A DNA stretch of 64,000 bases from an uncultured Gammaproteobacteria bacterium (GTDB lineage Bacteria > Pseudomonadota > Gammaproteobacteria > DATFLG01): contig CAZNBB010000002.1 in NCBI GenBank assembly GCA_964571225.1, forward strand, positions 7,421 to 71,420, read 5' to 3'. Below, one piece after another: positions 43,455-56,095 of the stretch (position 1 is the first letter of the stretch; each line of letters starts with the position of its first letter). The notes beneath the pieces were generated by a model that made no database searches, was not told where the DNA came from, and was given only the letters and a program-made list of their open reading frames with translations. The translations under genes were made by a program, and so were the position numbers.

Positions 43455-45035
<1,581 letters not shown>

Positions 45036-45104
45036 ACTCGTGCGGGGTGTTGCTGATGGAATGGACTTCAGTGGCGCATTATAGCGCGATTCGCCGCCCG
45101 GCGC

Positions 45105-45572
45105 CTATGCCAGTGCGCAGGCCAGAATGAGCGCGTCCTCCCGGCCGTCGTCCGACGGATAGTAGTTGCGGCGCACGCCCACCTCGTTGAAGCCCATGCT
45201 CTCGTACAGATGAACGGCGGCAGCGTTGGACGGACGCACCTCCAGCAGAACCATCTCCGCCTCGTGCCGGCGGGCCAGATCCATGAGGTGAGCCAGAATC
45301 CGACGCCCGATCCCCTTGCCCTGGGACTCGGGCCGCACACACAGATTGAGAATATGGGATTCGCCGGCGGCCACGCTCATCACGCCGTAGCCCTCGATGA
45401 CGGCCCCCCGCTCGTAGACCCAGCAGCAGTAACCCACCCGCAGGCAGTCCCTGAAGATGCCCAGGGTCCAGGGATACTCGTAGGCACGCCGCTCGATCTC
45501 CATGATCGCCATGAGGTCGCCCTCCACCATCGGGCGCATGCGTGCATCGGGATCTTTCAGTACAGCGCTCAT
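45105..45572 (-). CDS. rimI: Ribosomal-protein-alanine N-acetyltransferase (GNAT)
   Basis: ...ERRAYEYPWT...LLEVRPSNAAAVHLYESMGFNEV. The true start may be the internal ATG at about 45539. Confidence 0.8.
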   Translation of the reverse strand: MSAVLKDPDARMRPMVEGDLMAIMEIERRAYEYPWTLGIFRDCLRVGYCCWVYERGAVIEGYGVMSVAAGESHILNLCVRPESQGKGIGRRILAHLMDLARRHEAEMVLLEVRPSNAAAVHLYESMGFNEVGVRRNYYPSDDGREDALILACALA

Positions 45573-45578
45573 GGCCAG

Positions 45579-46322
45579 TCACCGTCGGCTTGTCGTGGCG
45601 ACGCCGTCGTTGCCCTGGGGTTCCGCCAGCAGCCGACGGGCCATCAGCAGGTCCTGCCAGGCCTTGCGCTTTTCCGCCGGCGAGCGCAGTAGATAGGCCG
45701 GATGGTAAGTCACCACCACCGGCGTACCGGCAGTCCCATAGCTGTGCACCCGGCCCCGCAGGCGACCCAGGGGCGCGTCGGTCTTAAGCAGGTTCTGGGC
45801 GGCCACACGCCCCACCGCCAGAATCAGCCGAGGCGCCACCAGCTCGACCTGACGTTGTAGATAGGGTTCGCAGCACACCACCTCTTCCGGGCGCGGGTCG
45901 CGGTTGTTGGGTGGGCGGCATTTGAGAATATTGGCGATGTACACGGCGTCGCGCCGCAGGCCAATGGCCTGAAGCATGGCATTGAGCAGTTGCCCGGCGC
46001 GTCCCACGAAGGGCTCGCCCTGGCGGTCCTCCTCCGCGCCCGGGGCTTCTCCCACCACCATCCAGTCCGCGCTCTCATTGCCGACGCCGAAGACGGTCTG
46101 GGCGCGACTCTGGTGCAACACGCAGCGCGTGCAGCCCTGCACCGACTCCTTCAGGGACGGCCAGTCGAGCCCGGCGCCGCCGGTCGACCGGGTTGCGCCC
46201 GACTCCGCCCCGGTGCGTGCAGCCACGTCCGCGGACGATCCGGCTTCGCCGAGCGGACGCCGGGCCCACCGCTGGATGCCCATGGCATCGAGGTACGCCT
46301 GCTGCTGCACTGTCGTCGGCAT
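45579..46322 (-). CDS. Uracil-DNA glycosylase, family 4
   Basis: 247 aa. ...CTRC.L...VFGVGN..A..M.VGEAPG..ED..G.PFVGRAGQLL... and HPAYLLR: the family-4 UDG motifs. A typical rimI neighbour. Confidence 0.82.
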   Translation of the reverse strand: MPTTVQQQAYLDAMGIQRWARRPLGEAGSSADVAARTGAESGATRSTGGAGLDWPSLKESVQGCTRCVLHQSRAQTVFGVGNESADWMVVGEAPGAEEDRQGEPFVGRAGQLLNAMLQAIGLRRDAVYIANILKCRPPNNRDPRPEEVVCCEPYLQRQVELVAPRLILAVGRVAAQNLLKTDAPLGRLRGRVHSYGTAGTPVVVTYHPAYLLRSPAEKRKAWQDLLMARRLLAEPQGNDGVATTSRR

Positions 46323-46341
46323 AACCGCTCCGCGCCCGAAT

Positions 46342-47892
46342 TCACACGTCCCCGAGCTGCGGGTGTTCCCTGTCCACCCGCTGCAGGATCTTGTTCAGAG
46401 CATTGATATAGGCCTTGGCCGACGCGATGACGATATCGGTGTCGGCGCCCTGGCCGTTGACGATGCGGCCGCCCTTTTCGAGCCGCACCGTAACCTCGCC
46501 CTGGGAATCCGTGCCCGAGGTGATGTTGTTCACGGAATATAACAGCAGGGTCGATCCGCTGTCGGCAATCGCCTCGATAGCCTTGAAGGTGGCATCCACC
46601 GGTCCGCTGCCGGGCGCGCTGGCACCCTTTTCCTCGCCGTCCACCCACAGGGTCATATCGGCCCGGGGCTGCTCGCCGGTCTCGGAGCACACCCGCATGG
46701 CCACCAGCTTGATGCGCTCGTTCTCCTGGGCGATGTCGAGTTCGGTGACCAGGGCCTGCAGGTCCTCGTCATAGATCTCGTGCTTCTTGTCGGCCAGGTC
46801 CTTGAAGCGTGTGAACGCCGCGTTGAGGTCCTCCTCGGCGGCAAAGGTCACGCCCAGTTCCGCCAGTCGGGTGCGGAACGCGTTGCGCCCTGAATGCTTG
46901 CCCAGCACCATGCGGTTGGTGGCCCAGCCCACGTCCTCGGCACGCATGATCTCGTAGGTCTCGCGACTCTTGAGCACCCCGTCCTGGTGGATCCCGGATT
47001 CATGGGCGAAGGCGTTGGCCCCCACGATGGCCTTGTTGGGCTGCACCGCAAAACCGGTGATGCCGGAGACCAGCCGGGAGCAGGGCACGATCTGTGTGGT
47101 GTCCAGGTCCACGTCGCAAGGCACGATGTCCCGGCGGGTGCGCACGGTCATGACGATCTCTTCCAGGGCCGCATTGCCGGCCCGTTCGCCCAGGCCGTTG
47201 ATGGTGCATTCCACCTGCCGCGCACCGTTCATGACCGCCGACAGGGAGTTGGCCACCGCCAGACCGAGATCGTTATGACAGTGCACGGAGAATACCGCCT
47301 TGTCGGCGTTTGGAATGCGCTCGCGCAGGGTACGGATGAGGCCGCCGAACTGCTCGGGGACGTTGTAGCCGACGGTATCGGGGATGTTCACGGTGCCGGC
47401 GCCGGCGTCGATCACCGCCTCGAGGATACGGCACAGAAAGTCGATCTCGGAACGCCCCGCATCCTCGGGCGAGAACTCCACGTCGTCCGTGAGCTGACGG
47501 GCCTGACGCACAGCCCGCACCGCCTGCTCCAGAACCTGGTCGGGCTCCATGCGCAGCTTCATCTTCATGTGGATGGGCGAGGTGGCGATGAAGGTATGGA
47601 TGCGTGCGCGCTCGGCGTCCCGCAACGCCTCGCCGGCCCGGGCGATGTCCTTGTCCAGGGCCCGCGCCAGACCGCAGACCGTGCTGTCCTTGACCACGCG
47701 GGCCACCGCCTGGACGGCTTCGAAGTCACCGACGCTGGCAATGGGGAAACCCGCCTCGATCACGTCCACGCGCATGCGCTCAAGCGCCTTGGCGATGCGG
47801 ATCTTCTCATCCTTGGTCATGGACGCACCGGGACTCTGCTCGCCGTCCCGCAACGTCGTGTCAAAGATAATCAGTTTGTCTTTTTCGCTCAT
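46342..47892 (-). CDS. leuA: 2-isopropylmalate synthase
   Basis: 516 aa. ...[19 protein letters not shown]...[13 protein letters not shown]... Confidence 0.93.
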
Positions 47893-48100
47893 GCCCTCGC
47901 TCCGCTCGGCCGTGGTCCGGCACCCCCGACGGGCGCACCGTCACACCGGGCATCAGGATATCAAAGCAACCCGCTTTGTGCTCGCCGACCCGGGTCCGGC
48001 GACGGTGCCGACCCCACGGCTTCCCAAGGGGAGCTATTTCCGCGCCGCAGGGGGAACCCGGGGGACCCCGGGGCGCCGCCCCCCGCCAGCGCCCCCAACA

Positions 48101-48127
48101 ACGCAAAAAGGCGCCCGCAGGCGCCTT
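48101..48127 (-). terminator. Rho-independent terminator oriented for the minus strand, downstream of the 48154..49362 gene
   Basis: An 8-bp stem (AAGGCGCC/GGCGCCTT) with a CGCA loop, followed on the minus strand by TTTTTGCGTTGTT. Confidence 0.65.
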
Positions 48128-48153
48128 CGCGAATCGCAACGGGAGCGCAGCGG

Positions 48154-49362
48154 CTACTGAATTCCGCCGGGTGCCGCACCCTTGCCGGCAAGAAACACAT
48201 CCGTCTGGCGCACATTGTCCCCGTTCATCACGGTGTGGATATCCACGGTTCCCCCAAGAGCGCCCGCGTTCTTGCCGAAGAAGGCGCCCTGCACCTTGCC
48301 GGTCAGGCCGTCGCTCAGCTTGTTCGACACCACATTCGCTCCGGAAATGGTACCGGACGCGGTGAATGCCACCTGCCCCACCAGATAGTCGCCGTTGCTG
48401 AGGTGCTCGATATGGGCGCCGGAGGTATCCAGGGCGCCTGTGGAGTGGCCCCAGGAGCCGTTCCAGGTACCGTGGCCGAAATCCACCGTGATCGCCACCG
48501 GGGTGCCGTTTGCCAGCATGCTGCCTCCGTAGCTGGCCTGCACATCGCCGGCCTGCAGCTTGTCCAAGTCGAGTTGGGAGGTCGTGATGCCGGTCACGAA
48601 CTGGCCGGACCCGCCGGTGTGGTCGGGGGTGCGGTTGTAGATGATGTTGTCCACGGTCGCAAGCACGGAATAGGCGACATAACGAAGTGTGCCGTCGGAC
48701 CAGGTCCCGGCCACCACATCGGGGTTCGCCGCATAGGGCAGTACACCGCTGACCTCGGATTTGTGGTCGAATCGTTCCGCCGGCGTCGCGGGCCCCAGCG
48801 CCCGATGAAAAGTGGTCTGGGTGGCACTGCCCACCATGGCATTCGCGGCCGTCTGGCCGACCGACAGGTTCTGCACCGACACCTGGGGGTACGCGCTGTC
48901 GCCGGGGTTGGTCGGGGTCACGACATAGGAGGCGCTCTGCCCTTCGGCGCCGTTGGTGGCGGCCGCCACCAAGGCCGCCACGGTGGTCTCGAAGCTGGCC
49001 GGCACCGGCCCGCCGTGATAGCCCTGCGCCCCGGTCTCGGTCTCGCTGTTTGCGGCCACATAGCCCGCGTCGCGCGCGTAAGTGGCAAAGCCGCAAGCCG
49101 CTCCGGCGACGCAGGGGCCCTGCACCGTGATGGTCGGCTTCTGGACCTGGGGCGTGTTCTCGCTGTTGCGCGGCGTGTTCTGTGTGGAAAGGTTCAGCAG
49201 CGCCACCGGGTGACCGCCTGCGGCGGGAGCCAGCACCGCCCAAGGCCCCCAGGAGTAGACGGAATCGTCATCGTGGGCCTTGTGCGTGGTGTTGGCGGCC
49301 ACCGGGCCGGCAGCCAGAGCAAAGGCGATGCCGGCTGCCAGCACGCTCCTGGAACGGGTCAT
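48154..49362 (-). CDS. Secreted protein with a TbpB/HpuA-type (lipoprotein-5-like) C-terminal beta-barrel; putative Slam-dependent cargo, hemophore-like
   Basis: Signal peptide MTRSRSVLAAGIAFALAAGPVAA with no lipobox Cys. The C-terminus matches the TbpB-fold signature block by block: ASYGGS, AITVDFGHGTWNG, YLVGQVAFTASGTISGANVV, GKVQGAFFGKNAGALGGTV, DVFLAGKG. SD GGAGGAG before the ATG at 49362. Confidence 0.65.
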   Translation of the reverse strand: MTRSRSVLAAGIAFALAAGPVAANTTHKAHDDDSVYSWGPWAVLAPAAGGHPVALLNLSTQNTPRNSENTPQVQKPTITVQGPCVAGAACGFATYARDAGYVAANSETETGAQGYHGGPVPASFETTVAALVAAATNGAEGQSASYVVTPTNPGDSAYPQVSVQNLSVGQTAANAMVGSATQTTFHRALGPATPAERFDHKSEVSGVLPYAANPDVVAGTWSDGTLRYVAYSVLATVDNIIYNRTPDHTGGSGQFVTGITTSQLDLDKLQAGDVQASYGGSMLANGTPVAITVDFGHGTWNGSWGHSTGALDTSGAHIEHLSNGDYLVGQVAFTASGTISGANVVSNKLSDGLTGKVQGAFFGKNAGALGGTVDIHTVMNGDNVRQTDVFLAGKGAAPGGIQ

Positions 49363-49651
49363 GTTTGTCTCCTCCGAGGGATCGCCGGCCACCTACGCCG
49401 GCAGGCTTTCGACTGCTTAAGCAATCGCTGTGCCACAGCTTTTATGGGTAATAAATACAGCCAGTTAGCTATATAAACAAACGCACCGCCTTCGGCATTG
49501 TAAATTAATTCGACTCGCCTGCCGGAGCAGGAATGGAGCAACAGACTGAAAAGTCCGGAAAATACTTAGCTTGCTCGTGATCGCATGCAATGTTGCGCCG
49601 GATATCGATGTAAATAATTCCGACGAGCGCCGTCCCATCCCTTTGCTTGGA

Positions 49652-50980
49652 TTAGAAATTCCGTGACAGGCTCAGGCTTACCTGGTGCCGTCGGTAGCGA
49701 TACACCGCATCATTGGAGCGATTGTCCGTGTAACGGAAGACACCGTTGATGGACCACTTCTCCAGTCGCCCGGTGGTGAATCGATGCTTGAATCCGATGG
49801 TCGCCTCGCGTTCCTGCTCGTCGCGCACCACACCCAGGGTGTCGACGCCGTCGTATTTGAGATCGTTGTAGTACAGACGGCCATAGATCGTACCGCCGCT
49901 CCAGGCATGCACGAACGCGGCCAGGTAACCGCCCGGACCGGTGTAGCCGAACTGATTGTCGTCGGCCGAGAAGTCGTACCAGTCCACGCCGCCCTGGATC
50001 GCCACCTTACGCTCGTTGAAATAATGGGCGTAGGAGACGCCCGCGCGTCGATACAGCCCGTCGCGCCCGCCGTTGCCCCCCTGAATGGTGGGTCTGTCGT
50101 CCCGGTAGCTGCGCTTGGACAGGGTACCGTCCAAGGACACCTCCGCATCCTTGAACTGCCAGGTGACGCGCGGATTGAGGGAGCTGAACAACGCCAGGCC
50201 ATGCCCCCCGAGCCATACATAGTCGAGTTGAACCGGCAGCGCGGCACGCCAGTGACGCAGCACCACCCACGCCGGCCCGGTACTGGCGCTCAGTACGCTG
50301 AGATCGAAGGCGTGTTGCTGGAAGTAGGAACGCTGATAGGCGTCCAGTTCACTCTGCCAGAGGAACTGTCCCACCTGCTGCCCGGCGCGAAAGCGCTTGC
50401 CGGGTTGATAGCGATGCACAACGCCGGCGGAGAGCACCACTGCGGTGTCGCTCTTGGGCAGCGAACTGGGCAGCACCGTCAGAAGCTGGCCCTGATAGGG
50501 CACAATGTCGCTGATGGGACCGATGTTCACATTGGAGTCGTACATGGTGCCGACCGAAACGAACGGCGTGAACCGGCTGGGTACGTCCAGCTTCTTCTGG
50601 TCCTCGTTGACCTGGGCCAGGAACGCCAGAATGCTCACCCGCACATTGGGCGGCACATGGGGATCCTTGAGCACCCTTTCGGCCGCCTTGCGTGCCTTGT
50701 CGTAATCGAGTGCACGGTAATAGGCGACGGCCAGTTCCAGACGTGCCCGATGCAGGTCGGGGGCATTGCTCAGGATCTGCTGGAACGCCTCGATGGCGGA
50801 AAACAGCTGGTCGCTGCGCAATGCCTTCATGCCTTTCTCGAACAGGATCTGATTGGGATCCTGGCTGGCGTCTGTCGGCTCGGCGGCTGCCGCCTGCCAG
50901 GATGCCAGCCCGATCAGCAAGGCCACGAACGCAGGGATCACGCGGCTGCGCACAGCCAGAATTTTTCTTATTGGTGACAT
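49652..50980 (-). CDS. Outer-membrane protein with an N-terminal TPR region plus a C-terminal beta-barrel: Slam-like (surface lipoprotein assembly modulator, DUF560-type architecture)
   Basis: 442 aa from the ATG at 50980: signal peptide MSPIRKILAVRSRVIPAFVALLIGLASWQAAAA, a TPR-like helical region (AYYRALDYDKARKAAERVL), then about 300 aa of alternating beta-strand pattern ending ...VSLSLSRNF with a terminal Phe. The 748-aa track ORF is an artefactual fusion with the antisense of the BTLCP gene. Confidence 0.6.
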   Translation of the reverse strand: MSPIRKILAVRSRVIPAFVALLIGLASWQAAAAEPTDASQDPNQILFEKGMKALRSDQLFSAIEAFQQILSNAPDLHRARLELAVAYYRALDYDKARKAAERVLKDPHVPPNVRVSILAFLAQVNEDQKKLDVPSRFTPFVSVGTMYDSNVNIGPISDIVPYQGQLLTVLPSSLPKSDTAVVLSAGVVHRYQPGKRFRAGQQVGQFLWQSELDAYQRSYFQQHAFDLSVLSASTGPAWVVLRHWRAALPVQLDYVWLGGHGLALFSSLNPRVTWQFKDAEVSLDGTLSKRSYRDDRPTIQGGNGGRDGLYRRAGVSYAHYFNERKVAIQGGVDWYDFSADDNQFGYTGPGGYLAAFVHAWSGGTIYGRLYYNDLKYDGVDTLGVVRDEQEREATIGFKHRFTTGRLEKWSINGVFRYTDNRSNDAVYRYRRHQVSLSLSRNF

Positions 50981-51205
50981 TTGTGCTATCCGTCCCGGCG
51001 TCAGCGCGCCGATTTTTCTTTGTCTTGAGCCTTCTCGGGGCCACGTGGCGTACATGATAGAGGTTGCCGGCATTCTCCACAATCGGCCTGTGCCGAACCG
51101 GACCCACGGTTGGCGGTCTATCTGCGAGCTGATAGACTCCGGCCAAAACCGGCCGCAGGACATGACATTACGATGCCTGCGGTGGAGAACGAACCCAGAG
51201 GCTCG

Positions 51206-51859
51206 ATGACACGTCGACTCCTTCTGCTGCTGTCGCTGTTGATCGGTTGTCTGGTCCCCCTGACCGGTACCGCCCGCGCTTCCGCCCAACCCGACACCCT
51301 GTTCGGCTACCGGGGAACCGAAGAAACCGGCGTACGGGTCTTCCATCAATGGGTCAGGGTTCTGGAACGTCATATCCGCGATGACGTGCCGGAAGGCGAC
51401 TGCAGCGAACGACGCCTCAACACCTGTCATTTGCGGCACTGGTACGCTTTTCTGCGCTCGATCCGCAAGCTTCCCAAACTGGAACAGATCCGGCGGGTCA
51501 ACACCTTCGCGAACAACGTCAGGTATGTGCTGGACATCGACAACTACGGCGTTCCGGACTACTGGGCGGACGCCAAGGAATTTCTCTACAATGGCGGCGA
51601 CTGCGAGGACTACGCCATCACCAAGCTGTTCTCCCTGCGATGGCTGGGTTTTCCTCCCAGTTCGGTGCGTCTGGTGGTGCTTCAGGACACCAATCTGCGC
51701 GTAGCCCATGCGGTGCTCGCCGTCTATCTGCATGGCAAGACGTACATCCTGGACAACCAGACGCAGCAGGTCGTGACGGACACGCAGATCGTGCATTACG
51801 TACCGGTGTATGCGATCAACGAGAACCACTGGTGGCTGTATACGCCGCCACCCTCCTGA
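51206..51859 (+). CDS. Periplasmic transglutaminase-like cysteine proteinase (BTLCP, LapG-like)
   Basis: Signal peptide MTRRLLLLLSLLIGCLVPLTGTARA and a catalytic triad context GGDCEDYAITK (Cys), AHAVLAVY (His), ILDNQ (Asp), matching PF06035-type proteins. Confidence 0.75.
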   Translation: MTRRLLLLLSLLIGCLVPLTGTARASAQPDTLFGYRGTEETGVRVFHQWVRVLERHIRDDVPEGDCSERRLNTCHLRHWYAFLRSIRKLPKLEQIRRVNTFANNVRYVLDIDNYGVPDYWADAKEFLYNGGDCEDYAITKLFSLRWLGFPPSSVRLVVLQDTNLRVAHAVLAVYLHGKTYILDNQTQQVVTDTQIVHYVPVYAINENHWWLYTPPPS

Positions 51860-51931
51860 CGAGGTCCGCTCTATGCCCGATATCAACGCCTTCGCCATGT
51901 CCGCTGCAGGTTCCCGCAGCCGGCATCATTC

Positions 51932-54022
51932 ATGAGTCGCGGCCTTCGCAACCCCGCTGTGGCGGGCGGCGCAATCCTGCTGCTGCTGGTCGCCGCCGGC
52001 GTGGCCGCCGTACTCTGGTACGTCTCACTGGAACAGCAACGGGACCTGCATGACTGGCAGATCCGTCTCGGCCTGATCGCCGACAGCCGCGCTGACGCCG
52101 TCGACCGCTGGGTGACTACACAGTTCGACGCACTGCAGGAACTGGCGGACAACGCCTCCCTGCAGATGTACGCCACCCAGTTGGAGTTGCAACCCAAGCT
52201 GCAGAGCGACAACGTCGAGCCCGCCCAGCTCAGCTACCTGCGCAGCCTGATCATCGCCACCGCCCAGCGCAGGGGCTTCATCGACCCAAGCCCGCTCAGT
52301 ACCGTCATCCGGGCCAACGTACCCGGTCACAGCGACGCCGGACTGGCCCTGCTCGATCCGGGCGGCAAGCTGCTGGTGGCCACACCCGGCATGCCCGCGC
52401 TGGACAAGGGCTACCGGGCCGCCGCCCGGCGGGCCGTGGAGACCGGGCAGCGAACAGTTCGCGACATTCATCTGAACGCGGCCGGAACCCCGGTCATGGG
52501 CTTCGTCGTCCCGGTCTACGCCGTACAGGGAGCACAACAGGGCCGCACCGCCCATGCGATCGCTGTGATCCTCGGGGTGAAGAACGTACAAAGCAGCCTC
52601 TATCCGCTGATCCGCAGTCACAACCTGCTCACGGACCAGGACCAGACTCTGCTGGTGCGCCGCGAGGGCAATTCGGTGGTCTATCTGAGTCCGCTGGAGG
52701 ACAGCAGCCGTCCCACGTCGCGGCGGCTCGCCCTGAATAACCCGGACCTGGCGGCGGCGTTTGCGCTCCAGCACCCGGGCGCGTTCGCGCGACTGCACAA
52801 CTATCAGGGTACGGACGTACTGATGACCAGCCGCCAGCTGAGCGCGGCCCCGTGGGTGCTGGTCCAGGAAGCCGGCGCCGCGCCCGCTCTGAAGGAATCG
52901 AACGATCACCGGCGCTTTCTGCTGACCGCCCTGCTGCTGACCATCTTTCTGGTCGCCGCCAGCCTGGTGGCGGCCTGGCGTCACGGCACCAGTGTGCGCG
53001 CTCTGACCATGGCGGAACACCTGCGTACGACGTCCCGCGAGTTGGAAGTACGCACCGCGCTGCTGCATGCGATCACCGACAACGTCACCGACCACATCTA
53101 TCTCGCGGACCCGCAGCAGCATTTCATATTCGCCAACGGCTCCCTGGCACAGGTCACCGGATTGGCCGGCGGGGACTTCGCCGGCAAATCCCTCACCAGC
53201 GTGCTGGGGCCAGAGACAGCGAAGAGACTGTCCGATTTTGCGGACCAGGCGCTGCAGGACAATCATCCGGTGGTGGTTACCCGCTCGTTGGATCTGGGCG
53301 ACGGCAGCCGGGTGTTCCACTGCGCTTTCATTCCACTGGCACACGTGAACGGCCTGGAGCGTACCGTACTGACCGTGCTGCACGACATCACGGATCTTCA
53401 GCAGGCGCAGATCAAACGCTCGGCGCTGCTGCGCCAGTTGATCATCACCCTGGTACGGGTCGTGGACATGCACGATCCCTATTCCGCCAATCACTCGGCG
53501 CGCATGGCGGAGGTGGCGCTGGCGGTGGGACGGTCCATGCTGCTGAGCCAGACGGAGCTTGAGACCCTGGAACTGGCAGCGCAGCTGGCGAATCTTGGAA
53601 AGATCTTCGTTCCCAAGGAAATACTCACCAAGACCGGCGCTCTCACCGAGGCCGACCAGGAGGTCCTCAAGAAGCATGTCCAGTACACACTGGACATGCT
53701 CTCCGGAATCGACTTCGACGGACCGGTACTGGAAACCATCGCCCAGAAGCAGGAGCACTGCGATGGCAGCGGCTATCCGAAGGGACTGATTGGGGACGAG
53801 ATGCTGCTGACCGCGAAGATACTGGCCGTGGCCAACGCCTTCGTCGCCATGGTCAGCCCGCGCGCCTATCGCGACGCCGTGTCGGTGGACGCAGCCCTGG
53901 ACCGGCTGTTGGCCGACAGTCACAGCCGCTACGATCGCCATGTGGTCGCCGCGCTGTTCCACGTGGCCGAGAACCGGTCCGACTGGTCAACATGGCCGAA
54001 GATACAGCCGCCGGAAGCCTAG
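51932..54022 (+). CDS. Membrane-bound HD-GYP phosphodiesterase with a large periplasmic sensor domain and a cytoplasmic PAS-like region
   Basis: TM1 (AILLLLVAAGVAAVLWYV), a periplasmic domain of about 300 aa, TM2 (FLLTALLLTIFLVAASLVAAW), a PAS-like segment, then HD...HCDGSGYPKGL (HD-GYP). 696 aa. Confidence 0.8.
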   Translation: MSRGLRNPAVAGGAILLLLVAAGVAAVLWYVSLEQQRDLHDWQIRLGLIADSRADAVDRWVTTQFDALQELADNASLQMYATQLELQPKLQSDNVEPAQLSYLRSLIIATAQRRGFIDPSPLSTVIRANVPGHSDAGLALLDPGGKLLVATPGMPALDKGYRAAARRAVETGQRTVRDIHLNAAGTPVMGFVVPVYAVQGAQQGRTAHAIAVILGVKNVQSSLYPLIRSHNLLTDQDQTLLVRREGNSVVYLSPLEDSSRPTSRRLALNNPDLAAAFALQHPGAFARLHNYQGTDVLMTSRQLSAAPWVLVQEAGAAPALKESNDHRRFLLTALLLTIFLVAASLVAAWRHGTSVRALTMAEHLRTTSRELEVRTALLHAITDNVTDHIYLADPQQHFIFANGSLAQVTGLAGGDFAGKSLTSVLGPETAKRLSDFADQALQDNHPVVVTRSLDLGDGSRVFHCAFIPLAHVNGLERTVLTVLHDITDLQQAQIKRSALLRQLIITLVRVVDMHDPYSANHSARMAEVALAVGRSMLLSQTELETLELAAQLANLGKIFVPKEILTKTGALTEADQEVLKKHVQYTLDMLSGIDFDGPVLETIAQKQEHCDGSGYPKGLIGDEMLLTAKILAVANAFVAMVSPRAYRDAVSVDAALDRLLADSHSRYDRHVVAALFHVAENRSDWSTWPKIQPPEA

Positions 54023-54072: not shown

Positions 54073-54867
54073 CTAACCCGGCCCGCCGCCGCTGCGGTTG
54101 GCCCGCTCCCTGCGGCGTTTGCGCAATCCCGAAAGGGTTAGAACAGGCCCGGAGAGGGCATAGATCAGAAAGACCGAAAACAGCACCTTGGGCGGATCCA
54201 CGGAAGTCAGCACGAACACCAGCACTACCAGCAGCACTGCCACGAAGGGCACGCGATCGCGGAAGTCGATTTCCTTGAAGCTGTAGTAACGGATATTGCT
54301 CACCATCAGCAGGCCCATCAGCACGGTCAGCACAAAGCCCGGAGCGATCATCTCCGCACCCGGAATCTTCATGTCGGAACCCACCCACACCAGACCGGCC
54401 AGCACGGCGGCCGCCGACGGGCTGGGCAATCCCTGGAAGTAGCGTTTGTCGGCGGTACCGACCTGAGTATTGAAGCGCGCCAGGCGCAGGGCAGCGCCGG
54501 CGGCGTAGATGAAAGCGGCGAGCCAGCCCAGCTTGGCCCAGGCCCAACCGAATCCCGACATGTCCCGCAGGGCCCATTCGTAGATGACCAACGACGGAGC
54601 CAGACCGAAGCACACCAGATCGGACAGACTGTCGTACTGGACCCCGAAATCGCTCTGGGTATTGGTCAGGCGGGCAACGCGGCCGTCCAGGCCGTCCATG
54701 AGCATGGCCACGAAAATGGCAATGGCGGCCGGACCGAAATGGTCGCTCATGGCCGCGACGATGGCGTAGAAGCCCGCGAACAGCCCTGCCGTGGTGAGCA
54801 GGTTGGGAAGCAGGTAGATGCCTTTGCGGCGTCTGGGCTCTGGGCTTTCCGTTTCCGGATCGGACAT
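54073..54867 (-). CDS. pssA: CDP-diacylglycerol--serine O-phosphatidyltransferase (CDP-alcohol phosphatidyltransferase type)
   Basis: 264 aa. ...DGLDGRVAR...GVQYDSLSD... (the CDP-OH transferase motif D-G-x2-A-R...G-x3-D-x3-D). Confidence 0.85.
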   Translation of the reverse strand: MSDPETESPEPRRRKGIYLLPNLLTTAGLFAGFYAIVAAMSDHFGPAAIAIFVAMLMDGLDGRVARLTNTQSDFGVQYDSLSDLVCFGLAPSLVIYEWALRDMSGFGWAWAKLGWLAAFIYAAGAALRLARFNTQVGTADKRYFQGLPSPSAAAVLAGLVWVGSDMKIPGAEMIAPGFVLTVLMGLLMVSNIRYYSFKEIDFRDRVPFVAVLLVVLVFVLTSVDPPKVLFSVFLIYALSGPVLTLSGLRKRRRERANRSGGGPG

Positions 54868-54958
54868 GATCGCTTGCCGTCGCTACCGCGGGGAACTGCT
54901 GTGGGCTGACCCGTCGGCCGGTGGCCGCTTCGCTCGGAAGCGGCCACCGGCCCAGGGC

Positions 54959-56095
<1,137 letters not shown>

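Follow-up and report, generated by a model that had tools for sequence, protein, structure and literature searches.

How might a secreted protein that carries no lipid be held at the cell surface by its own exporter, and under what control might it be let go? The question is raised by two adjacent open reading frames (ORFs) on the minus strand of a 64-kb stretch of DNA from an uncultured gammaproteobacterium (contig CAZNBB010000002.1, the whole stretch being referred to below as the window). The first (49652..50980) encodes an outer-membrane protein (OMP) resembling the surface lipoprotein assembly modifier (Slam) translocons of the type XI secretion system (T11SS), and the second (48154..49362) encodes a putative cargo protein with a TbpB-type barrel. 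An initial annotation had recognized this pair correctly and had read it as a hemophore-type secretion system, but it ended at 50980 and overlooked a divergently transcribed gene for a bacterial cysteine protease of the transglutaminase-like kind (BTLCP) and a gene for a degenerate HD-GYP receptor. As the protease and the receptor accompany the pair in most related genomes, the likely mechanism changes. The OMP and cargo are predicted to make up the exporting part of a cassette of four genes (48154..54022), in which protease and cargo would be coupled under the control of cyclic di-GMP (c-di-GMP), as a Lap/Dvh-like inside-out switch acting on a T11SS. On the sequence data, this coupling is considered to have somewhat more than an even chance of being correct.

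Each part of the proposed switch has a described counterpart. Pairs of T11SS or Slam proteins with their cargos are known, including soluble cargos (PMC8406197, PMC12282271). The DvhD protein has a dCache-PAS-HD-GYP architecture and binds c-di-GMP (PMC13090378, PMC10690286); it cannot hydrolyse the nucleotide, because its HD motif is SQ and its HH motif is MN. DvhD controls the BTLCP DvhG, which cuts adhesins of the type I secretion system (T1SS) between the alanines of [T/A/P]AAG (PMC13090378). The same study treats only T1SS adhesins as substrates, and calls the mechanism by which DvhD-type receptors restrain BTLCP proteases unknown (PMC13090378).

Outer-membrane protein and cargo

The features of the pair were well above chance, and the Pfam scores obtained with single sequences were just borderline. 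The OMP had the architecture assigned to it beforehand, with a signal peptide, tetratricopeptide repeat (TPR) helices, a barrel of about 14 strands and a terminal Phe (…LSRNF). An AlphaFold2 (AF2) model built on the homologue alignment (predicted local distance difference test, pLDDT, of 91.5) placed five helices over residues 42-131, followed over 135-441 by 14 long strands, which is the layout of Slam/T11SS proteins. The profile search gave a divided result: the SlipAM/DUF560 family (PF04575) was matched at the threshold (22.2 bits, gathering score 22), but TPR_Slam was not reached (28.2 bits, gathering score 35.2). More than 229 homologues (40-98% identity) were present in a large protein database, some of them named in their sources as 'surface lipoprotein assembly modifier', 'DUF560 domain-containing' or 'DUF2860 family'. 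When 65 homologues were scanned against Pfam, TPR_Slam was matched by 49, SlipAM by 32 (best 1.4e-11) and DUF2860 by 39.

The cargo gene begins 289 bp downstream of the OMP gene on the same strand, and its product has at its C-terminus an 8-strand barrel of the TbpB type, as had been claimed. The Pfam TbpB_B_D profile was matched just above its gathering score, the NCBIfam slam_lipo profile fell far under its cut-off (30 bits against 80), the AF2 model was all-beta over residues 82-395 with residues 1-81 disordered (moderate pLDDT of 63), and Foldseek matched the model to the TbpB C-lobe (E 5e-5). The signal peptide is of the signal peptidase I (SPI) type, and a lipobox Cys near its end was found neither in the window cargo nor in any homologue, which places the family in a non-lipidated subclass and bears out the earlier reading on this point. 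Relatives of the cargo were few by word-indexed searches (8, then 18 matches); a full HMMER scan gave a family of 338 representatives at 50% identity.

The G + C content is ~64% throughout the window and the nearest relatives of the pair are uncultured gammaproteobacterial metagenome-assembled genomes (MAGs), in agreement with the high-GC gammaproteobacterial origin proposed at first. More than 3,000 T11SS OMPs have already been surveyed (PMC12282271, PMC8406197), so the view that such pairs have been little catalogued no longer holds.

Conservation of the four-gene cassette

Eighty genome loci with relatives of the OMP (38-83% identity) were gathered (designated by L numbers below), and 148 were confirmed in the GTDB species set. 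The loci were labelled Thiohalobacter, Thiohalobacterales, Thiogranum, Chromatiaceae, Pseudomonadales, Rhodocyclaceae, Methyloversatilis and unclassified Gammaproteobacteria MAGs. Six-frame ORFs of all loci were searched with hidden Markov models and phmmer. Among 84 sources, a BTLCP was found in 80, an HD-GYP protein in 72 and a cargo-family ORF in 71. The arrangement of the window, with the cargo downstream of the OMP, the BTLCP divergent and the receptor adjoining the BTLCP, was present in 60 of 82 non-redundant sources with an OMP homologue (38-98% identity), and most exceptions were contig ends; in 63 of these 82, the first gene downstream of the OMP was a cargo-family ORF of the same strand. 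The window flanks (prfC-rimI-udg-leuA and pssA-ilvC) were common to only ~7-23 loci, and the protease and receptor stayed with the OMP-cargo pair across different flanks and several orders, so the four genes form a conserved unit. Conserved flanks (ilvC-pssA, leuA) were considered as the cause of the linkage and were rejected, being common to only ~16-23 loci. No ORF of at least 1,000 aa was present in the window, and hence no giant adhesin is encoded nearby.

Protease and receptor

The divergent gene encodes a periplasmic cysteine protease of the LapG/DvhG family. The Pfam Peptidase_C93 profile (PF06035) was matched at 61 bits (gathering score 27), and the protein aligned to crystal structures of LapG from Legionella and P. 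fluorescens (4fgo, 1e-17; 4u65_E, 2e-17). GDCED, AH and LD were retained in these alignments, giving the BTLCP fold, the Cys-His-Asp triad and the calcium-site Asp/Glu as far as they can be read from sequence. DCE was present in 68 of 80 protease homologues by a strict pattern. The start was assigned to the Met at 51206 because the L001 homologue is called from that Met. From this start the window protease begins MTRRLLLLLSLLIGC (51206..51250, plus strand), a lipobox-like string with LIGC that reads LAGC in close relatives. A lipoprotein nature of the BTLCP across the family was rejected, as a lipobox-like string occurred in only 10 of 80 homologues; most had an ordinary signal peptide followed by FPxDLFGY.

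The receptor gene adjoins that of the protease. Its product was matched best in the PDB by two structures of Desulfovibrio vulgaris DvhD, 9rc0 and 9rbz (PAS/HD-GYP and HD-GYP), whose identifiers were confirmed; the E value was 7e-50 when one sequence was used and 5.9e-72 when a profile of 45 sequences was used. Among 68 receptor homologues the HD position was occupied by AN in 61, SN in 4 and CN in 1, and never by HD; the HH position was mostly KQ, and GYP was retained. The canonical c-di-GMP contacts of DvhD were mapped onto the receptor through a HMMER alignment, the numbering offset being derived from P567, R569, L577, K582, Y523 and K520, and six of eight were identical (Y523, L577, Y621, M646, R650 and Y652), E668 being Asp and K582 Gln. 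The receptor thus combines, by this mapping, a PAS domain with an HD-GYP domain that lacks metal ligands and retains nucleotide contacts.

A predicted cleavage site in the cargo N-terminus

Cargo proteins diverged to ~27% identity, and in their alignment a stretch after the signal peptide, DDSVY(S/R)WG(P/R)WAVL(A/S)PAAG, was nearly invariant. The pattern WG[PR]Wxx[L]xPAA[G/A] was present in 70 of 73 cargo-family ORFs from the genome loci; the three others comprised two N-termini with a YGRW variant and one C-terminal fragment. P-A-A was found in ~63-66 of the 70 motif-bearing cargos, followed by G in 38 and by A in 24. The PAA(G/A) string fits the LapG/DvhG site consensus [T/A/P]AAG, which was established by experiment (PMC13090378), and is a predicted cleavage site. 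In the window cargo it lies in a region that was predicted to be disordered (pLDDT < 50), and a linked, accessible candidate site of the kind cut by LapG and DvhG is conserved across the family. The linker that follows has 36 aa and 14% Pro in the window cargo and ends at the first folded element, PCVAGAACGF (aa 83); in homologues its median length was 42 aa, with 8-29% Pro.

Two types of cargo N-terminus were distinguished. The window type has 10-18 residues between signal peptide and motif, and the distant type has a four-Cys module of ~70 aa before the motif. In L064, L035, L038 and others this module, DCxxxLxRWAxDPxxxPxxxxxxC…DPCxGPxAAxSVxCWGPW, precedes PAA(A/G); it could be a folded retention plug like that of LapA.

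Table 1. Positions of the cassette genes and of the predicted features within them (window numbering; coordinates are given where a feature was placed on the DNA)
Feature	Coordinates	Strand	Residues	Basis or remark
Cargo, non-lipidated	48154..49362	-	402 aa	Profiles, AF2, Foldseek
Cargo, SPI signal peptide			aa 1-23	MTRSRSVLAAGIAFALAAGPVAA, cleavage before N
Cargo, disordered N-terminal arm			aa 24-81	AF2
Cargo, conserved N-terminal motif DDDSVYSWGPWAVLAPAAG (D31-G49)	49216..49272	-	aa 31-49	Predicted LapG-type scissile bond between Ala47 and Ala48 in P-A-A-G (aa 46-49)
Cargo, linker between motif and first folded element	49120..49215	-		Predicted disordered; candidate barrel-spanning tether
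Cargo, TbpB-like handle and barrel	48178..49119	-	aa 82-395	
Cargo, Pfam TbpB_B_D match	48232..48522	-	aa 281-377	27 bits, gathering score 26
Sigma-54-type -24/-12 element TGGCAC-N5-TTGC	49421..49435	-		~59 nt upstream of cargo ATG
OMP, Slam/T11SS-like	49652..50980	-	442 aa	Profiles, AF2 model, homologue names
OMP, SPI-type signal peptide			aa 1-33	…WQAAAA, cleavage before EPTD
OMP, TPR helices	50588..50857	-	aa 42-131	AF2
OMP, ~14-strand barrel	49655..50578	-	aa 135-442	AF2
Divergent intergenic region of OMP and protease genes	50981..51205	.		
Protease, LapG/DvhG family, periplasmic (BTLCP, Peptidase_C93)	51206..51859	+	217 aa	ATG at 51206; ORF opens at 51110
Protease, GGDCEDY	51593..51613	+		Ca-site D/E flanking catalytic Cys
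Protease, AHAVL	51704..51718	+		His
Protease, ILDN	51746..51757	+		Asp
Receptor, DvhD-type, inner membrane	51932..54022	+	696 aa	Profiles, PDB matches
Receptor, layout			transmembrane (TM) 9-29; periplasmic ~30-328; TM 329-349; PAS 376-489; degenerate HD-GYP 507-671	PAS_4; HD_5
Receptor, LANLGK in place of HD motif	53585..53602	+		AN for HD
Receptor, KQ in place of HH	53744..53779	+		

Proposed mechanism and its alternatives

In the proposed scheme, the OMP would thread the C-terminal TbpB-like domain of the cargo to the cell surface, a short conserved N-terminal peptide (…SVYSWGPWAVLAPA) would remain in the periplasm, and the disordered linker of ~35-60 aa would sit in the barrel, so that the cargo would need no lipid anchor to stay tethered. 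The receptor would restrain the protease while c-di-GMP is high, with the same polarity as in LapD/LapG and DvhD/DvhG, and when c-di-GMP falls the protease would cut between Ala47 and Ala48 of P-A-A-G. Since the uncut peptide would retain the cargo, with the linker running through the barrel, cleavage would free the surface domain, which would then be released or would cease to be displayed. This tether-and-release step, in which a non-lipidated TbpB-fold cargo is held by its N-terminal peptide through the Slam barrel and shed on BTLCP cleavage, is put forward tentatively, at a little under an even chance. If the analogy to Lap holds, the passenger could be an adhesin or a matrix protein.

Several observations weigh against this scheme. 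Cleavage, tethering and the response to c-di-GMP are all inferred from homology and synteny. Only ~24 residues precede the predicted cut in the window cargo, compared with folded retention modules of ~100 aa in LapA and DvhA, and the 'DP' element that precedes the LapA site is absent. The fourth position of the motif is Ala and not Gly in about one third of the cargo homologues, and three have A-E or A-S for A-A. The cargo model is of moderate confidence, and the borderline SlipAM/DUF560 match of the OMP covers residues 321-442 only. In the receptor, K582 of the DvhD contacts is substituted by Gln, the periplasmic domain gave a weak score with Pfam dCache_1 (17.7 bits, gathering score 45), and no sequence match of this domain to the DvhD dCache structure 9RC2 was obtained even with a 45-sequence profile. 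The authors of the DvhD work describe the dCache similarity as invisible at the sequence level.

Because the would-be retention peptide is tiny in the window subfamily, an alternative was retained in which the cargo is kept in the periplasm by its N-terminal peptide, bound for instance to the TPR region of the OMP or to a chaperone, until a c-di-GMP-gated cut by the BTLCP permits export. The evidence from synteny and motif serves this maturation or licensing step equally well, and so short a peptide resembles a pro-peptide or a docking tag more closely than it does a plug. It is nevertheless thought unlikely, as it has no precedent in the Lap and Dvh systems, where cleavage frees a protein that is already displayed (PMC13090378), and as the long Pro-containing linker suits a barrel-spanning tether and would be superfluous for a pro-peptide. 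The identity of the exporter can also be doubted: many OMP homologues match DUF2860 as readily as SlipAM, and the fold search with the OMP model returned PelB and the generic 14-strand barrels CymA and OmpG as best PDB matches, there being no Slam structure in the PDB for comparison. On that evidence the OMP might be a DUF2860 or porin-like barrel and not a translocon, the TbpB-like protein periplasmic or associated with the outer membrane, and the cassette unrelated to secretion. A TPR-barrel OMP directly upstream of a TbpB_B_D protein is, however, the defining signature of T11SS (PMC8406197, PMC12282271), and the TPR_Slam matches among the homologues point the same way; this reading is regarded as very improbable.

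The remaining alternative is the one proposed initially, a plain hemophore-type T11SS pair in which the OMP constitutively secretes a soluble ligand scavenger of the HphA kind and the protease and receptor act on another substrate encoded away from the cassette, a T1SS adhesin for instance. The T11SS assignment and the non-lipidated cargo hold, and in this respect the earlier interpretation is partly supported. The hemophore function was not upheld. No Fur-like site, Rfam element or adjacent TonB receptor was found in the window, the passenger matched no family beyond its barrel, and no gene long enough for a giant adhesin is present there. The linkage of protease and receptor to the OMP-cargo pair across flanks and several orders also counts against separate functions, and a constitutive hemophore would leave the PAA(G/A) site in the disordered arm unexplained. 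A plain hemophore pair is accordingly judged distinctly unlikely, less probable than the licensing step.

Regulatory elements and iron context

The intergenic region between the OMP and protease genes presumably holds the promoters of both. No consensus sigma-70 site was found in the intergenic regions, and terminator-like matches were weak. The interval 49363..49651, in which a Fur site had been suggested as a check of the hemophore reading, was scanned together with 50981..51109, and no Fur-like box was found (best match, 7 mismatches in 19). Scans of both intergenic regions with Fur, Zur, Crp, Fnr, NikR and PmrA consensus sequences gave nothing convincing. An Rfam scan of 47800..52000 (E ≤ 1) returned no match, and hence no c-di-GMP riboswitch.

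A sigma-54-type element upstream of the cargo gene falls within a block that is conserved when aligned with L001. The cargo gene was preceded by such an element in 8 of 69 loci (window, L001, L006, L010, L011, L014, L046 and L071), with ~0.006 expected per 550 nt. In the window lineage, transcription of the cargo gene therefore seems to start from an RpoN-dependent promoter distinct from that of the OMP gene.

No TonB-dependent receptor adjoins the cassette in the window. Only 12 of the related loci had one, encoded upstream of the receptor gene (e.g. L020:1995-4073). A similar set of loci shares a downstream isocitrate/isopropylmalate dehydrogenase gene, for which reason the TonB-dependent receptor appears to be tied to a lineage and not to belong to the cassette. 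Neither the Fur control nor the cognate TonB-dependent receptor of a hemophore was thus seen at the locus, and nothing in the upstream elements or context points to iron.

Neighbouring genes and variant loci

The cassette is located between pssA-ilvC and leuA-udg-rimI-prfC (window 43455..47892 and 54073..55981), a neighbourhood that was seen only in closer relatives. In the L025 lineage the cargo gene is missing and leuA follows directly after the OMP gene. In six Pseudomonadales-like loci (L058, L059, L066, L067, L074 and L078) the cargo gene follows the BTLCP gene on the opposite strand, at the usual place of the receptor; no receptor was found nearby in these six, and the di-alanine is degenerate in three (PAEG or PASG). 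In L003 (Thiohalobacter sp. IOR34, CP128988.1, 6904..11285) the OMP homologue (52% identity) adjoins a DDE transposase and precedes a gene for a 581-aa Lactamase_B_3 protein; the BTLCP, receptor and cargo-family genes are all absent, and the cassette has probably been disrupted here.

A distant subfamily of ~35-42 loci (e.g. L018:9538-11369, L016:9736-12030) has two further genes downstream of the cargo, encoding a cohesin-like protein of ~200 aa (one with a PEP-CTERM-like end) and an L,D-transpeptidase (YkuD with a peptidoglycan-binding domain). These neighbours hint at a link to peptidoglycan. Neither gene adjoins the window cassette.

Comparison with known systems

The pair shares with the T11SS/Slam pairs (Slam1-TbpB of Neisseria, HsmA-HphA of Acinetobacter, HrpB-HrpC and NilB-NilC of Xenorhabdus) a DUF560-like OMP with TPRs and ~14 strands beside a Sec-exported cargo with a TbpB-type 8-strand barrel, and non-lipidated cargos are known there too. 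It differs in that the OMP is distant, with a short TPR region and a borderline DUF560/DUF2860 assignment, that the cargo has a conserved WGxW…PAAG arm, that the pair is fixed to a BTLCP and a c-di-GMP receptor, and that no TonB, Fur or iron link was seen in the window. Compared with the hemophilin/HphA hemophores, no heme context was found and the handle domain is much larger; that paradigm is also without the N-terminal cleavage-type motif and the Pro-containing arm seen here.

The receptor and protease resemble DvhD/DvhG of Desulfovibrio vulgaris (PMC10990149, PMC13090378) in the order TM-periplasmic-TM-PAS-metal-ligand-deficient HD-GYP, in the adjacent BTLCP gene and in the putative substrate motif [T/A/P]AAG, with DvhD as the best PDB match of the receptor. 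Dvh controls giant T1SS adhesins of the RTX type with folded retention modules, whereas here the sole linked candidate is a 402-aa Sec/T11SS protein; the host is gammaproteobacterial, and the periplasmic likeness to dCache is not detectable by sequence. In LapD/LapG/LapA of Pseudomonas fluorescens and relatives, the periplasmic Ca-dependent BTLCP is alike, and so would be the di-alanine cut and the inside-out c-di-GMP control, whereas the receptor of the cassette is of another kind than the GGDEF-EAL protein LapD, and the LapD_MoxY_N domain, a T1SS and RTX repeats are missing. LapG also frees a non-LapA adhesin, CdrA, from the cell surface in P. aeruginosa. CdrA is a two-partner-secreted protein, and LapG control is hence not confined to T1SS substrates.

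In the literature searched (subscription journals lay outside its scope), nothing was found that joins DUF560, T11SS or Slam with LapG or BTLCP; 'surface lipoprotein assembly modifier' and 'transglutaminase-like cysteine' were not found together, and T11SS and c-di-GMP occurred together only in generic reviews. Two T11SS surveys with their supplements (PMC8406197, PMC12282271) contain, in the parts available, no mention of BTLCP, C93/PF06035, HD-GYP or c-di-GMP, and the published T11SS co-occurrence analyses deal with clusters 1 and 3 only. Each module is thus known, and the wiring of a Lap/Dvh-type switch to a T11SS appears not to have been described before.

Significance

T11SS/Slam proteins have so far been framed as exporters of host-associated nutrient receptors, lipid-anchored or simply released, and the Lap/Dvh systems as controllers of giant adhesins. 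If the proposed switch is correct, c-di-GMP-controlled periplasmic proteolysis would reach another secretion route, and T11SS cargo would have a new, lipid-free mode of anchoring and a first regulated release. The four genes would also offer a tractable system for the restraint of a BTLCP by a DvhD-type receptor, with a substrate of 402 aa in place of an adhesin of 3,000-5,000 aa. The family, seen in at least 80 species-level genomes, is widespread among environmental Gamma- and Betaproteobacteria and represents a large, as yet uncharacterised clade of T11SS from free-living bacteria resembling sulfur oxidisers, of which the published co-occurrence analyses, in their available portions, make no mention.

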